A DNA stretch of 26,893 nucleotides from Verrucomicrobiota bacterium (lineage in GTDB: Bacteria; Verrucomicrobiota; Verrucomicrobiia; Verrucomicrobiales; DEV007): assembly GCA_045046875.1 (NCBI GenBank), contig JASFYY010000141.1, forward strand, positions 1-26,893, written 5' to 3'. The position numbers were made by a program. Positions 18,001-26,893 of this stretch are shown one piece after another (position 1 is the stretch's first letter; every line of letters begins with the position of its first letter).

Positions 18001-21000
18001 TTCGGTGGAAATGGAGTGGGCTCCTTTGGGGCAGGTGACATTGGCTCCGTCAATTTTGTAGTTGGCGGTATCGCCGGTCCAGCCGGTGAAATCCTTGCCG
18101 TTGAACAGCGGCACCCAGTTACTGACTTTGTCGAGCATGGCCTGGGTTTTTTTACCGGCGACGATGGCGGGATCGGGGCCTTTTTTCTTCGGTGCGGCTT
18201 GCGCGGGAAGGGAGAGTCCGGCGATCAGCCCGAGGCCGATGGCGGAGGTGAGTAGGGTGAGTTTATTGGTTTTCATGAATACTTGGGTTGAGACACGTTT
18301 GCTGAGGTTTTGTTGAATAATTGTTATTTTCAGTCATTCGGAAGGGCTGTGTCAATTAGGGATCGGTGGCTGATGAGGTATTTTCGGAGAGTAGTAAACT
18401 TCCGCTATACAAATTAATATTCGTTTTGGGGTGATCCCAATTTGCATCGATGATTAACTCTACTTTTTTATTGATGGAATTCGAGCTTAAATATTCTAGC
18501 GCATCAAATTTGAAATAGAAGCAGACAGGCGTTTCATGGGGGTGATGTTCTGAATAATAGTCAGAGAAGATATTAGATTCGTATATGGGAGTTACTGGAA
18601 TATTTGTTGCGTTTATTTTGAGAGTCAAATAAATCCCGATATCGTTTAAATTGGTTAATTGCGAGGTTAGATAGCACCCTGTTATATTTATTAGAGACGA
18701 GTGATTTGATGCAGTTATTTTGATGTTCATCGGGCAGTCGGGCTTTACCATTCCCATTTCCGAAACATATTTCCCATGCAATCTCATGTTGAACAATAAA
18801 GTGTGAATCAGTGCGAATGGCCATAAATGGGGTTGTAAGAATATGGCAAGAAACAATATGCTCTGAGGTAACCAAGTACGGTAGTAAACATCGATATCCT
18901 GATCCCAGGCGAATGATTTTAAGAGAGGGGTTTTTTGTTGGTTGCTTATTTTATATCTTTTTATCAATAGGTAGGTGATGTAAGTGCAAAACCCTAGAAG
19001 AGGAATTATGGATGTTTTTATGGATAGCAGAAGGAGGTATGTTAGTAGAATGCCTTCCAAGGGGGAGATGAAATAGCGGCTAATAAATATTGATCTCTTG
19101 AGGCCTATTCTAGTAACTGCTGTCAGAATACCCGATTTTAAATCGTCTTCAAAATCATCGATTTCATGGCCAATGATGCCTCTCAGTCCACTGAAAAACT
19201 GCCAGGCAAGGGCTATAATGAACAGTAAGCTGTGGTTTGTAGGGTTGCTGGAGCTCAGCTGAGTGGAGATTAAGCATGCGATCGCAAAAGGGATGACATG
19301 CGCATACAGGGAGTCGACGATGACGCCGATGAATGATTCTTTGAACCGAAGAGGAGGAAGGGAATAGATGATAAATAAAGCAGCTTCGATAGTCGCCAGT
19401 AAGTAAATGATAGGAGCGGCTTTGATCAGGATGAGTGCAGAAAATGAAAAAAATAGAGTTACAGTTATTAGGCTGTATCTTTTTTTCGTGGATACTGAGG
19501 ATAAGGAATTTTTTCTAGATGCTTTAGCATCTGTTTTCAAATCGCCGAGGTTGTTGATTATATGTCCAAAAGATGCGGTAAAGATAAAATAAGTCAGTAG
19601 AGCCAAAAAACAAAAGATGGCATTAAGCGTTGGAACATCACTTCCGATGAGGAGAAAGTAGAAAGGTGTAAAAAGGTAACTAAGTTTATAGTTCCACCAA
19701 TCATTGAGTCGGCTTAGTTTTTTAGCCCGACTAAATAAGCTGGATTTTTTTTCGGTCATTCTGAACTATTTAGTGGATTGAGCTTCAGTAGGAAAGGAGA
19801 AGCCTGTGTTCTGAAGCTTTTCGGAGTTGAAGCGATCCACAGCATAATCGTATAGTTGTTGATCAATTTCGACGAAGTTTTCTAGTTTTCTACGTAATCC
19901 GAGATGGATACTAGATGACCAGAAATCGGGAGTGATGACGTTTTTTCGCTGAGGAGCAACTCTTTCGAGCAGTAGGGTGCGTTCGCCAGGTAGATTGAGG
20001 CAGTTGGCGATATGGTTTACGGATTCTACTGATTGCTCAAAAATGCCAAATGTCGGCATGCGATCAAGGAAAGTAATCGCATTTTCAAGCATCAAATGTT
20101 GGGGTGGAATGGAAGACTGTTTCATTAGCTCTTGAATTTGCTGGGAATCAGGCTTGCCCTTGGTTAAAAGCTGAAGAAGGGGGCGACGAACGGTAAGCTC
20201 CTGAGCTTGGGCATTCTGGATGGCTTCGATAAATGCTGGCACATCCAACATTGCTTCTACCGGATGAGCAGAGGTCAGGATGTTCTGGTAATGGTCTTTC
20301 CAACCAGGGTGTTGTTCCACAGCTGGCTCGCGTAATATGTGTTGAGCTAAAGAGAGAATACGTTCGATTGGTTTCCGGAGGTAGGTTACCGTGGCTACAG
20401 GGGAATCTAAGATATCAAGTAATGAGGCACCAAAATGTCCGGAGTAACATGAGTAGCTATTGATTTCTTCAAGGGGGAGCTCCAACAGCCCAACGAGATC
20501 ATAACAAGGTATGGAGTTTTCGGCAGTATAGAGACGACGGAGCCAACCCCCAAATGCTGATCCTGAAGTTTTGGGGATATGAAGAAAGTAAACTTTTCGA
20601 GATGGAGGTGCAGATTGATTGGGTTCTGACATGCTGAATTAAGCGGAATGGGATTATTTGAATCGTTCGAGCGTGAGAGGTAATTTTTTAGGGCCTCGGA
20701 AAACAGAGTAGTTAACTAATGGGGGTTCATCAAGAGGCCAGTTGGGTGAAATATTACTAAACTGATTGAGCAAAGTTTTGATAACAATTTTGGCTTCTAG
20801 TCGGGCAAGATTCATTCCCAGGCATTGGTGATTACCAAAACCAAAGCCAAGATGTTTGTTGCGACGGCGATTGTATTGGAATTTGTCAGCGTCGGGGAAC
20901 TGTTTCTCATCGCGGTTGGCTGAGGCTAATAGGAGTTCGATTTTGTGCCCTTCGGGAATTAGTATTCCGTTTATTTGGCTAGGAGAGAGGGTTGTTCTAC

Positions 21001-24000: not shown

Positions 24001-26893
24001 TGTTTGCTGCTTAAATACTCGATTCCGTGATCGATTGATTTACGGAGATTATTAAGGTTCAGTGGGATCTTTTGTGAGTCATTCTGATGGGGTTTCTGGT
24101 TTTCGAGTGGGATGTCTTTGAATATCCAATCTGCCAAAGCATCTACATAATTTTTGTAAGAGTGATGGCTTTGCACATAGGTGGCTCCTTGATTTTTCAC
24201 TCGGATACGTTGATCGGACGCTCCCATTAGGCTGTCGATGGCTTTAATGGTTTCACCCATATTTTGATAGGGAACTACGATGCCGAAACCGGTTTCGCGG
24301 ATGATGTCGCGACTTCCCTGGCCCTTATCAAAACCAACCACCGGGATGCCCATAAGGAATGATTCGAGGACCACACTAGGGAAAGGATCGATTCGCGAGC
24401 AGAGTAGGAAAACGTCCGCTTGCAATAGAGCGGGGCGAATATCTTCCGTCTCATCGAGGTGGTGAAAGTGCCCGATGATACCTTCTTGTTGCAAATCATG
24501 CATCGCATGGAAAAAGAGATCTTTATCGCCAATGCTCCCGACCCACAGGAAATGAGTATTCGCTGCATGTGGGGAGGTTTTTGAATATTTGATGATCAAT
24601 GAGGTTAACCAGTCAAACCCTTTGCGGGAGTCGACGGTTCCACAAGACATCACTAATCGGTCACTCGCTTGTAGATGATTTACAGAGCGAAAGGTTTCGG
24701 TGAACTCGCTGATGTCATTTTCGGTGGGAGCCTGTTTTTCTAGGAGGTAACATCCTTGGGGGTAAACAGAGAACTTAGTAACAGAGTTTTCTGTATGGCT
24801 TGTGAATTTCCGGGCAGCAAAGCTTTGCAGGACTGCTTGGCAGGGGAAAACGACGTTGCTTGCAGCAGCGAAGTGACGTTGTACCCACTCATGATCAAAG
24901 GCATAAGGGTATTCGTGAATCAGTGATCTGACATCCATGCCTGCAGCGGCGCAAGCTTCGGCAATGCCGGTAGAGCAGAGAGAATTGATCAGTGCGATTT
25001 GATTGTATGTGACTTGGTTGAGCTCAGCAAAAAAAACAGTAACTTCAGGTATTGTGGTTTTGAACGCCTGCTCGAGATTTTCGACAATCAAAAGGCATTG
25101 CTCGTTAAAATCGGAAAACAAGGTTTCCTTTGGAGCTAAGGACAAAAGGATTATTTCGCAGTCATGCCGTTGTTTGAGATGCCGGATAATCTCGAGGATG
25201 ATCATGGGAGCTCCGGTTCGGGTCATGTCGTGAGTCCCGACCACGAGTATTTTTTTCCCGGTTAACTTCGCGAGTTTGGTAGTGGCTTCTTTGAGCCGAG
25301 TTCTTAGAGTCAGGGTAGATTCTTTTCTTTTCTCTAAATTACGGAGTAAACGCTCAGTAGGAAGTTCTCTTGGGGCTTTGGGGAATATCTCCCCAGTTTC
25401 GAGAACTTTAAACTGGAACAAGTGAGGGGTGTTGAATGGTTTTAACCATTCATAAGGAACAGGAAGTGAGAAGCCATGCCCGTCAGAGATTTCTGCTTTG
25501 AGTGAATTTTTGTTGGCTAAAGTTGAAACGATGACTTCGCCGCTGGAGTCGATCAAACCTACATGGAAGTGGAGGTTGACGGAATTTTGGTTGAAAACGC
25601 CACCGTGGAAACATAAATCTTCGATTCCAAAATAGCGTTTTTTGGTTGAGGTTACACCTGCTTTCCGTTGTGTGATGCCTTTTTTTAGTTTCGAAAGAAA
25701 GGTCATCTATATCAATTAACTGACTGAGCTTTGATGTTGGTCCAGACGATGTTGCGGTATTGGGCGCGGGTTTGGAAGGAGCAGAGGCCGAGGGGGATGC
25801 AGAGTTCGATGTCGCCGGGGCGCACGCTGATTTTTTTGTCTTTCAGGTCAAGATCGACAAATTGTTTGTCGTCGAGCCACACTTCGATTTTGGGATCGGT
25901 GACGCGGACTTTGATTTTATACCAACGGTTGTCTTCGAAACCTTCGATGTTCATGGTTTCGTTTTCCGAGGCATCGAGGTCATCGATGCTGGAGATGCCG
26001 ATGATGCCACCACCCCAGCCGCCGGCGATGAAAGAGCAGTGGCTGTCTTTGACGGGAAAGGTGAGGCCGAGGAAAAAGTCGTTGCCGCTCAGTTTCATCA
26101 CTTCGAGGGAAAGTTCGTAGTTGGAGGTGGCGGGTGGTTTATCGCCCCAGACGACGCCGGTCATCATCGCGCCGAAGTCAAACTGCAGGTCGCCTTTTTC
26201 GGTGATGAAAACTTCGCCTTCGCCACCGAACTCAACCGGCTTCCATTGACCCATTTTTTTACCATCAAAGAGAGAGATGATATTGGGATCTTTTTTGGGC
26301 GCAGCAGGTTTGGCTGCGGCTTTGGGCTTTTCCTTGGGCTTTTCAGCAGCAGCTTTTGCTGGGGCTGTGGCAGGTGCTGTTTGGTCTTTAGCTTTGTCAG
26401 CTTCGGGTTTTGGCGGGGTATCGCCGGGCTTGCAGGCGGGCAAGCTGATGAGGGTCAGGGCGAGTAAGCATAGGGCGAGCGGGGATAGTTTGAGCAATTT
26501 TGACATGAAGGAAGTGTGGGGGCAGAGCGAGAGGTCGCAAGGGATTTTTTGACTTTGAGCAGGAAGAAACGTTTGAAGAGGGCGGCGGAGTGAAGGATGT
26601 AGGGGCAGGAATAATATGATTTCGATAAATGACAATGCAGCGGGCCAGTCCCTGGTGGACGAGGTCAGGGAGTTTTTCTCTCCTGAGGGCGCGCTTTCGT
26701 CTTTGAAGCACTTTGAATACCGGGCTGAGCAGCAGCAAATGGCGGTTAGTGTGGCGGCATCGCTGGTGAATGCGGAGCCCCTGGTGGTGGAAGCGGGCAC
26801 CGGGGTGGGCAAATCGCTGGCTTATCTGGTGCCGGCGGTGTTGTTGGCGAAGCGGGAGAAGCGCAAGGCGGTGATCACCACTCATACGATCAA

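Follow-up and report, generated by a model that had tools for sequence, protein, structure and literature searches.

A glycosyltransferase, predicted class II terpene cyclase and cytochrome P450 fused in one protein beside a UbiA-family prenyltransferase in a low-GC bacterial cassette

The cassette and its genes

The window, i.e., the whole 26,893-nt stretch of DNA analysed, contains a 7.4-kb insert of four genes, the cassette, which separates a co-directional pair of conserved host genes, each encoding a 3-keto-disaccharide hydrolase domain (Table 1). Comparison with congeners showed that homology ends at position 18320 and starts again at 25728-25733, and the site is empty in four of the five congeners (G001, G003, G004, and G005), where the flanking genes are adjacent. 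The fusion gene starts 5 nt past the stop of the upstream host gene and is followed by genes for a second P450, a sulfotransferase and a UbiA protein. The GC content of the cassette is 0.439 (0.386-0.458 for its genes, confirming the low values noted in the preliminary description) while the genome averages 0.51; only 0.9% of 1550 genome windows are that low, which supports a foreign composition. No integrase, tRNA, terminal repeat or promoter/terminator excess was seen in its surroundings.

Table 1. Features of the cassette, with positions in the window.
Feature	Position	Strand	Basis or remark
Four-gene low-GC cassette	18321..25727	-	Inserted between two conserved host genes
UbiA-family membrane prenyltransferase (aa 1-330) with conserved, unnamed C-terminal domain of ~135 aa	18356..19759	-	PF01040
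Sulfotransferase, Sulfotransfer_2-like, 288 aa	19766..20632	-	Atlas features
Second P450, 380 aa	20654..21796	-	Local paralog of the fused P450 domain
Fusion: N-domain / GT4 / class II cyclase beta domain / P450	21840..25706	-	1288 aa, no internal stop
Fused P450 domain, aa 906-1288	21843..22991	-	Best PDB match CYP109/YjiB-type, E 8e-56
Class II terpene cyclase beta domain, single-beta	23007..24074	-	AF2 (pLDDT 96.9); Foldseek
DLDDT motif, D648-T652	23751..23765	-	D650 is the predicted general acid
GT4 (GT-B) domain, aa ~150-530	24117..25259	-	PF00534 and PF13692 above cut-off
Unnamed N-terminal domain, aa 22-128	25323..25643	-	Travels with this GT4 subfamily

The uninterrupted reading frame, with Pfam and fold evidence, bears out the earlier claim that a GT4 glycosyltransferase, a class II cyclase and a P450 are joined in one chain, with matches above the Pfam cut-off at residues 337-507 (GT1/GT4, E 3e-15) and 1047-1252 (P450, E 1e-22). 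The motifs R361-K362 and D440-x7-E448, corresponding to the RK and D/E-x7-E motifs of a GT-B C-domain, are intact and invariant in eight of eight fusions. The N-terminal domain has no Pfam family and matches only unnamed Atlas clusters (0.87-0.88); elsewhere it occurs alone (L013) or joined straight to a cyclase-P450 (P0009). Among 23 close N-domain and GT4 proteins, 13 carry non-cyclase tails (eight sulfotransferase-like, four FkbM, and one GT2-TPR), including the closest relative (59%); action of this GT on a terpenoid is putative. The methyltransferase or sulfotransferase tails found on this GT module elsewhere indicate that it is swappable, and genomes G024, G101, and G138 have the module with no cyclase found there. 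In the GT tree, the GT of this fusion lies beside sulfotransferase-fused GTs (99/97), apart from the nine other cyclase-fused GTs; a single clade of cyclase-fused GTs was not rejected (AU p 0.17).

The fused P450 retains heme ligand C1232 and E1161-x-x-R1164, and its I-helix (AGFVTT) is missing the usual acid. The second P450 likewise has the heme Cys, the ExxR motif and an I-helix without the acid (AGLVTT); the acid-alcohol pair of canonical hydroxylating P450s is thus absent from both. Sharing 47% identity with the fused P450 and no more than 41% with any other, the second P450 represents a local duplication of the fused one, and it was not seen beside the fusion in six related loci. The acid is also missing in P0002, in all ten GT-fused P450s and in 11 of 14 P450s from metagenome loci whose motif could be read, and present (AGxET or AxxET) in P0014-P0017 and P0063. 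CYP114 of bacterial gibberellin synthesis (PMC10293830) is another terpenoid-pathway P450 without this acid; however, the known likeness is confined to the missing acid, the cassette has no dedicated ferredoxin, and acid loss alone is not predictive of ring contraction.

The UbiA protein matches PF01040 above cut-off (55 bits), shows the hydropathy peaks of a multi-pass membrane protein, and carries the motifs N69-x3-D73-x3-D77 and D202-x3-D206, both invariant in seven of seven sequences. No NCBIfam family reached cut-off, no informative PDB sequence match was obtained, and no named family was found for its C-terminal domain; a homolog search returned at least three proteins, and prediction of a complex between UbiA and the cyclase domain was uninformative (score 0.00). 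The sulfotransferase call, flagged as weak in the preliminary description, was strengthened by Atlas features (0.96), a TM of 0.81 to Sulfotransfer_2 clusters, and orthologs that match PF03567 below cut-off (E 3e-4 and 3e-3); this copy itself has no Pfam match and no informative PDB match. Orthologs were found only in G030 and G067, both beside the fusion, giving three of the seven fusion genomes including this one, and the gene is optional to the cassette.

The cyclase domain and its substrate site

Pfam returned just a sub-threshold SQHop_cyclase_C match for the region between GT and P450, and NCBIfam also misses the domain. The alignment-based AF2 model (the single-sequence fold reached a pLDDT of only 39.8) forms an (alpha/alpha)6 toroid, as in class II beta domains. 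It is closest to the drimenol synthase AsDMS (Foldseek E 4e-14, Z 32.8, rmsd 2.3 Å over 287 aa, ~20% identity), followed by MstE/SHC-like cyclases (Z 27-28; MstE 27) and glycosidase toroids (Z at most 20). The earlier statement that residues 545-900 match only drimenol synthase structures holds for a single-sequence search (9mhs, E 3.5e-6; 9m7d, E 1.7e-5; PPDLDDT aligned), but a profile built from 107 relatives also reached SHC, AstC, and SsDMS, and MstE weakly (E 4e-4, against 5e-27 for AsDMS). In the profile alignment, D650 is invariant (107/107) and D648 nearly so (105/107), aligned with AsDMS D333 and D331, respectively; the helper tyrosine is kept as Y778, and the aromatic pocket F595, Y634, Y635, Y866, and W873 corresponds to AsDMS F281, F318, Y319, F509, and F518. 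Alignment and model therefore support a class II terpene cyclase with intact acid motif and fold.

The single beta-domain class II fold, the DxD acid with helper tyrosine and the aromatic pocket are features in common with AsDMS (PDB 9MHS/9M7F; PMC12365925, PMC12232559), and the fold is also that of a Sorangium mono-beta synthase (10.1101/2025.09.20.677545). In AsDMS, as in the fusion, the cyclase is joined to a downstream tailoring domain, but the HAD domain of HAD-TC-beta enzymes is present neither in the fusion nor in the cassette. The differences extend to a long insertion, the GT4/P450 fusion, the tie to UbiA, and the diphosphate site, where one of six direct AsDMS contacts is kept (Y426 = Y777). 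Y373 is replaced by W686 (W in 101/107), R380 by E736 (D/E in 89/107), R425 by F776, R513 by a gap, and R378, whose placement is uncertain near a gap, by a non-basic loop; this mapping comes from a profile alignment at 20% identity, next to a gap of 27 columns, and not from superposed coordinates. The loss of these contacts and the lack of a HAD partner leave the sesquiterpene or drimenol-like product suggested previously unsupported. The FPP-cyclising Sorangium enzyme, in contrast, retains the Y and R of the site. However, the AsDMS substitutions R380A, R425A, and R513A caused no loss of activity, and the clade has conserved basic residues of its own (R633, K641, H642, R644, and R724) that could bind diphosphate. 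P0187, in which a Trp_DMAT-like prenyltransferase is fused to a cyclase, has the same W/D signature. The insert helix was considered for membrane docking, but this role was rejected because the charge fits stand-alone homologs (net +1 to +5) and not the fused clade (0 to -4).

Distribution, UbiA coupling and glycan context

The fusion was found in six of 150 relatives (frames of 1336-1487 codons, one running off its contig) and none of five congeners, extending the rarity first noted in a sample of 80 (five cases). A UbiA gene of one subfamily directly follows it in all six loci (three of three had been reported), with a sulfotransferase-like gene nearby in two (previously one). The 54 long homologs described earlier were reproduced, including the query: nine GT-cyclase-P450 proteins (eight besides the query), four cyclase-P450 proteins without GT, 40 with UbiA, and one with a sulfotransferase. 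PPDLDDT is kept in all nine three-domain proteins (six had been checked), and a separate homolog search added a tenth, P0058; the fusion is kept in frame in the ten at 42-48% identity. A 400-genome phylum sample gave only two further strong cyclase matches (G430 and G466) and no further three-domain frame. Across eight fusions, mean pairwise identity is 43-52% in the domains and 16-22% in the linkers, and all three domain trees have the same main split.

Since the UbiA subfamily and the cyclase occur in exactly the same seven of 151 genomes, the minimal unit would be two genes, fusion plus UbiA, and the earlier image of a one-protein assembly line does not hold. Cyclase and UbiA distances correlate (rho 0.34 against a maximum of 0.27 in 2000 permutations), although only six of 14 well-supported cyclase splits are found again in the UbiA tree. 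The preliminary description is thus partly supported: the three catalytic domains, the acid motif, the UbiA and sulfotransferase neighbours, and the foreign composition stand.

At 50% identity, the wider cyclase-domain family falls into 1399 clusters when E values up to 1e-3 are admitted and 242 when the limit is 1e-30, and no characterised member was found in the literature. Among 29 loci that remained after dereplication and span 8 kb or more (L008 left out as a duplicate), UbiA occurs in 22, and a GT in 18 of these 22 by local profiles plus two by Pfam (20/22) and in none of the seven loci without UbiA; since these loci also supplied the seeds of the neighbour profiles, both these counts and the low background (UbiA 0.4%, GT 6%) are biased towards enrichment. 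No co-occurrence was seen between the fused GT (five groups) and another, distinct GT4 that recurs in the loci (12 groups), and other arrangements include a split GT4, cyclase, UbiA, and AT-P450 order (L099) and a UbiA-GT4-GT4 fusion (L128). Seven of the 29 loci have Wzm- and Wzt-like (ABC-2 permease and ATPase) glycan exporter genes beside cyclase, UbiA and GT, with a Wzt_C domain in three; none lies in the cassette or the six related fusion loci. An unlinked Kps-type pair is present on contig C65. This setting in glycan-building and glycan-export loci, absent from the earlier reading, makes a glycolipid or glycoconjugate a better fit than a classic secreted meroterpenoid. No acceptor-supplying gene recurs among the scanned neighbours, the only HAD gene seen in that scan lies beside L089, a locus without UbiA, and PF04345 was not found in the 94.7% complete genome. 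Type III PKS (L011) and PKS-NRPS (L012) were each seen once and were rejected as a general acceptor source.

Candidate pathway and alternatives

Sequence and model evidence suggest, at a confidence that we put halfway between doubt and acceptance, that UbiA prenylates an acceptor which the fusion would cyclise, oxidise and glycosylate to a cyclic-terpenoid glycolipid. UbiA, with its motifs in place, would move a host C15 or C20 prenyl group onto a polar acceptor, releasing diphosphate. D650, helped by Y778, would then protonate the terminal alkene and cyclise the attached chain, in a putative order of steps to which fold and residues are suited. Both P450s would oxidise the ring system; as they have no I-helix acid, the reaction may go further than plain hydroxylation. 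GT4 would add a sugar from an NDP-sugar, and the sulfotransferase could optionally sulfate the product. The fusion would pack together three soluble steps for which other bacteria use separate genes or other fusions.

Prenylation before cyclisation is favoured because the AsDMS diphosphate contacts are replaced, and would also fit P0187, which shares the W/D signature and has an ABBA-prenyltransferase and cyclase layout like that of NctPC. NctPC is reported to prenylate and then cyclise, and the NctPC/ChrPC peptide enzymes use a single-domain cyclase; here, in contrast, the prenyltransferase is a membrane UbiA and the cassette has no precursor-peptide or lanthipeptide gene (PMC13290415). In the reported route of MstE (PDB 6SBB; PMC9401909, PMC12414744), a single-domain cyclase acts on a prenylated, non-diphosphate substrate, as we propose here. 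The fusion cyclase lies outside the MstE clade (profile E 4e-4, 16% structural identity), genes for an aromatic acceptor do not recur (a type III PKS occurs near L011 only), and the context is glycan-related. The MstE cluster pairs its cyclase with a UbiA-type enzyme, a pairing that recurs here with UbiA in seven of seven genomes and fused in 40 of the 54 long homologs.

Somewhat unlikely, in our estimate, is the reverse order, in which the beta domain makes a drimenyl- or copalyl-type diphosphate from FPP or GGPP through a rebuilt basic site and UbiA either ionises it as a class I-like cyclase/hydrolase or passes the cyclic terpenyl on to an acceptor, which may be a sugar, before P450, GT and sulfotransferase tailoring. 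The nearest enzyme in structure and sequence is an FPP cyclase (Z 32.8 against 27; E 5e-27 against 4e-4), FPP cyclisation by a stand-alone beta domain is documented, terpene synthases of the UbiA type that share these motifs are known, and a class II then class I sequence is known for PtmT2/PtmT1, PtmT1 being UbiA-like. This order would also account for the lack of a recurring acceptor gene or phosphatase, and the clade-conserved K/H/R patch would suit it. However, many members of the wider family that are linked to UbiA lack that patch, and the known contacts are gone, R380 being replaced by an acidic residue. A passenger GT, extending or priming a separate glycan while cyclase-P450 and UbiA make an unglycosylated oxidised (mero)terpenoid, is a shade less credible. 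The cyclase-less GT proteins, which presumably serve separate glycans, the three genomes with the GT module and no cyclase found, and the cyclase-P450 proteins without GT are in its favour; the conserved in-frame fusion, the common split of the domain trees, the GT accompanying cyclase and UbiA in 20 of 22 loci even unfused, and the absence of any other glycan gene from the cassette argue against it.

The low identity to characterised cyclases (~20%) and the lack, in the literature found, of a characterised clade member leave a slim chance that the beta domain protonates a prenyl chain without ring formation, by hydration or isomerisation, to an acyclic modified prenyl conjugate; the cation-stabilising aromatic pocket of AsDMS is nevertheless conserved, and all top structural matches are cyclases. 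An assembly artefact or decaying gene might be suspected from the recent insertion and foreign composition, but is highly implausible: the same in-frame layout recurs in six other genomes and nine other proteins, which makes an artefact unlikely, all catalytic motifs are intact, and the domains are far more conserved than the linkers.

More tentatively than the prenylate-first pathway itself, it is possible that cyclase and UbiA produce a polycyclic terpenoid that anchors a cell-surface glycan in the membrane, primes it or caps it; in the large loci Wzm/Wzt would export it, and in this cassette it would be cut down to a short, optionally sulfated glycoside. The lipid carriers and anchors of known Wzm/Wzt systems are not known to be cyclic terpenoids. 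If correct, bacteria would have a glycolipid class not described so far, in which P450s lacking the acid carry out ring chemistry that goes past hydroxylation and the fusion is the smallest, most tractable form. No description of a fusion of this layout was found in the literature, and its GT and P450 surround a cyclase domain missed by Pfam and NCBIfam. Heterologous expression of the two-gene unit would make the product of the widespread cyclase-UbiA-glycosyltransferase module directly testable, and might bring to light a terpenoid glycolipid class not seen before, along with unusual P450 chemistry.

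A conserved three-enzyme fusion in a recently inserted cassette

The fusion of an N-domain, a GT4 glycosyltransferase (GT), a class II terpene cyclase beta domain and a P450 is real and conserved. It was found in 6 of 150 relatives, spread over four genera, and in an alignment taking in 8 of the 10 fusions found, pairwise identity was 43-52% in the domains and 16-22% in the linkers; that it is an artefact is exceedingly improbable. Pfam assigned the GT4 and P450 domains and left the middle of the long ORF without any match over cut-off. The drimenol synthase match of residues 545-900 given in the preliminary description was obtained again (E 3.5e-6), as were its 54 long homologues, query counted (9 three-domain, 4 cyclase-P450, 40 UbiA-fused and 1 sulfotransferase-fused). 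In the midpoint-rooted cyclase tree the GT-fused proteins form a single clade (FastTree 0.945), nested in a larger group rich in cyclase-P450, cyclase-acyltransferase (AT) and cyclase-UbiA fusions. The architecture is apparently new to the literature: the records searched, mostly titles and abstract openings, held no account of the fusion or of a beta-cyclase/UbiA/GT/Wzt module. Some fusions are extended at the N-terminus by about 160 aa of P-loop-like sequence with a weak AAA_25 match (P0010, P0012; L012:6304-10746); in relative G019 a PKS-NRPS gene is immediately upstream of the fusion. There is also another triple fusion, UbiA-cyclase-P450 (P0016, 1101 aa, representing 30 sequences on 65 contigs), with a DLDDA cyclase motif and the I-helix acid present in its P450.

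The four-gene cassette was inserted recently. It has a GC content of 0.439 against 0.51, and 0.9% of 1550 genome windows are equally low. The flanking host genes are adjacent, with the cassette absent, in four of five congeners; neither flanking gene was found in the fifth (73% complete). Congener homology ends at 18320 and restarts at about 25728, and neither an integrase nor a tRNA or terminal repeat was seen at the cassette. The upstream host gene ends 5 nt before the fusion start, so read-through transcription is likely. Genes around the cassette and the source names of relatives suggest a verrucomicrobial host. At the empty site, congener contigs G003:C28 and G005:C359 carry differing short inverted-repeat-like inserts between the flanking genes, and the spot may therefore be an insertion hotspot.

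Features of the cassette and of the remainder of the window
Feature	Coordinates	Strand	Remarks
Fusion ORF, 1288 aa	21840-25706	minus	first of four co-directional genes
P450, 380 aa		minus	second gene of cassette; 43 nt gap to fusion ORF
Sulfotransferase, 288 aa		minus	third gene; 21 nt gap to second P450
UbiA, 467 aa		minus	fourth gene; 6 nt gap to sulfotransferase
Tandem paralogs, 576 and 570 aa	2427-5967		planctomycete cytochrome c and FGE-sulfatase domains; adjoin ApbE and two sulfatases; ordinary host genes
ORF like REP-associated tyrosine transposase	15-1004		at contig start

Partner genes of the fusion

The smallest unit consists of the fusion plus UbiA, two genes rather than the one-protein assembly line first proposed: the UbiA subfamily is present in exactly the 7 of 151 genomes that hold the cyclase, and UbiA, already noted to follow the fusion, comes directly after it in 6 of 6 relatives, with a C-terminal FabD-like acyltransferase domain in two of the six. 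The merosterol cluster includes a UbiA-type enzyme, and PtmT1 is UbiA-like. Three polyprenyl synthases are encoded in the genome, outside the cassette. The sulfotransferase occurs in 3 of 151 genomes, every one with the cyclase, and its earlier identification is backed by Atlas and by weak Pfam matches of orthologs.

The heme Cys and ExxR are preserved in the P450s. The I-helix acid is absent from 10 of 10 GT-fused P450s, from the second P450 and from 11 of 14 readable P450s of the listed metagenome loci, and present in five GT-less cyclase-P450 proteins; according to the available text on CYP114, a terpenoid P450 lacking the acid can be active, with unusual chemistry (PMC10293830). The second P450, whose nearest kin is the fused P450 domain (47%), was not seen in related fusion loci. 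The cassette lacks a gene for a redox partner; in the genome a single Fer2 domain was detected.

The wider cyclase family and its loci

A search of 50%-identity representatives returned 1399 matches, 242 of them at E up to 1e-30, and the best 150 were mostly stand-alone proteins of about 340 aa. A metagenome scan confirmed at least 284 matches, of which the best 78 loci were combined with 6 related-genome, 2 phylum and 2 plasmid loci. Clustering at 70% identity reduced these 88 loci to 52 groups, of which 29 include a locus of 8 kb or more; the remaining 23 are too short for scoring. Among the 29 listed groups, UbiA was present in 22, any GT in 18 (every one within the 22), P450 or PhyH in 15, sulfotransferase in 8, and Wzm/Wzt and AT in 7 each, against 0.4% for UbiA and 6% for GT with the same profiles on 890 windows of the host genome; these counts are descriptive and not a test, because the profiles were seeded from the same loci, five groups were fusion-selected and kin are non-independent. 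Pfam finds a GT in two further groups (L064, L072). Pfam and NCBIfam scans (163 and 28 proteins) agree with this picture, as does the annotation of the Nostoc plasmid record (five GTs, a sulfotransferase and an ABC pair). Beside UbiA, the examined loci showed no recurring gene for a polyprenyl synthase, a phosphatase or an aromatic acceptor.

UbiA and cyclase are joined in 35 proteins (P0022-P0056; L018:10045-13701), mostly with a PhyH dioxygenase, TPR and at times a thioesterase, and cyanobacterial where the source organism is named; the Nostoc plasmid copy (L018) is surrounded by the GTs, the sulfotransferase and a Wzm/Wzt pair. Cultured carriers of such large loci include Nostoc sp. C052 (L018, on a plasmid) and Novosphingobium sp. 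RL4 (L019). Part of the cyclase-UbiA fusions share a repeat (E 1e-9) with the genome's RgpF-domain capsule protein. A Kps-type capsule locus of the genome (G000:C65:996-34595; L131, L132), with several sulfotransferases, an RgpF-domain protein and a terminal P450, is unlinked to the cassette. Locus L128 (G430:C6:54000-72799) combines a UbiA-GT4-GT4 fusion, radical SAM/SPASM, Wzm/Wzt and GDSL proteins with a divergent cyclase that has Glu at the general-acid position. A FabD-like acyltransferase domain recurs with no ACP or KS, alone or fused to P450, cyclase or UbiA (L092, L099, L104, L119, L056, L058; P0060, P0064, P0068, P0080), with GxSxG in most readable copies.

In three of the seven groups without UbiA (L073, L082, L089), an adjoining gene of about 300 aa is akin to domains that are cyclase-fused elsewhere. 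Unannotated genes of this size next to cyclases without UbiA match the N-terminal domains of P0140/P0148/P0163 or P0191 (L073, L091, L112; L066, L082, L089) and are candidate prenyltransferases; a LanM-type gene is present as well in L073, and a HAD gene in L089. One cyclase fusion, P0187, carries a Trp_DMAT-like domain (E 2e-4), the same layout as NctPC as described in the available text of PMC13290415.

Predicted pathway and alternative readings

We propose, at about even chances, that the cassette directs synthesis of a cyclic-terpenoid glycolipid: UbiA would prenylate an acceptor, the beta domain would cyclise the attached chain, the P450s would oxidise it, GT4 would add a sugar and the sulfotransferase would optionally sulfate the product. 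The domains, fold, motifs, linkage and insertion are observed; each reaction, their order and the product are predicted. The fusion is best read as a compact version of a widespread, so far uncharacterised terpenoid-glycan module. It would work like the prenyltransferase plus single-domain cyclase systems of NctPC and MstE (PMC9401909, PMC12414744), yet its cyclase lies outside the MstE clade, as it does outside that of the drimenol synthases.

The domain model, folded with 107 relatives (pLDDT 96.9), superposed best on the drimenol synthase AsDMS (PMC12365925, PMC12232559; Z 32.8, rmsd 2.3 Å, 287 residues), followed by single-domain SHC-like proteins and MstE (Z 27-28). Its active site was mapped by profile alignment, the AsDMS residue list in the available text of PMC12365925 and column counts in 107 sequences. 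D648/D650/Y778 are the counterparts of the catalytic set D331/D333/Y427. Five pocket aromatics are preserved; F328 is replaced by I645 and A511 by G868. Acid catalysis without cyclisation is very unlikely. Only one of six direct diphosphate contacts listed there, Y426, is preserved: Y373 becomes W686 (W in 101/107 sequences), R380 becomes E736 (D/E in 89/107), R425 becomes F776, R513 aligns to a gap and R378, which adjoins a 27-column gap, has no basic residue opposite it. In the Sorangium mono-beta enzyme, which cyclises FPP, the Tyr and Arg are retained, as far as the accessible text describes it (10.1101/2025.09.20.677545). A substrate with a non-diphosphate head group is favoured, and only favoured, because these losses must be set against three AsDMS Arg mutants still active according to the consulted part of PMC12365925 and against basic residues conserved in the fusion's own clade (R633, K641, H642, R644, R724). 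A route in which cyclisation comes first is possible, though rather unlikely. The genome holds a second class II cyclase, a 610-codon squalene-hopene-cyclase-like frame (G000:C83:47964-49793; L130:3965-5794).

That the GT is a passenger is also unlikely, and it draws on the GT's relatives. Among 23 close N-domain plus GT4 proteins, a set leaving out 6 distant matches, the tails were cyclase-P450 (10), sulfotransferase-like (8), FkbM methyltransferase (4) and GT2-TPR (1). The fusion's GT groups with four sulfotransferase-tailed GTs (99/97), away from the other nine cyclase-fused GTs, although a single clade of cyclase-fused GTs is not rejected (AU p 0.17); congruent domain trees could not reveal this placement, as they included only fusions. 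GT4 is a swappable module, and its history would involve either tail swaps on more than one occasion or exchange of the GT. The mixed tails and separate placement weaken the claim of a GT dedicated to the terpenoid and tie the protein to glycan-building machinery. The N-domain plus GT4 proteins with a sulfotransferase-like tail form an unnamed family (P0198-P0201, P0203-P0206; L166:5589-8186), of which one member bears a carrier-protein domain; in a sister family the tail is the FkbM methyltransferase instead (P0207-P0210).
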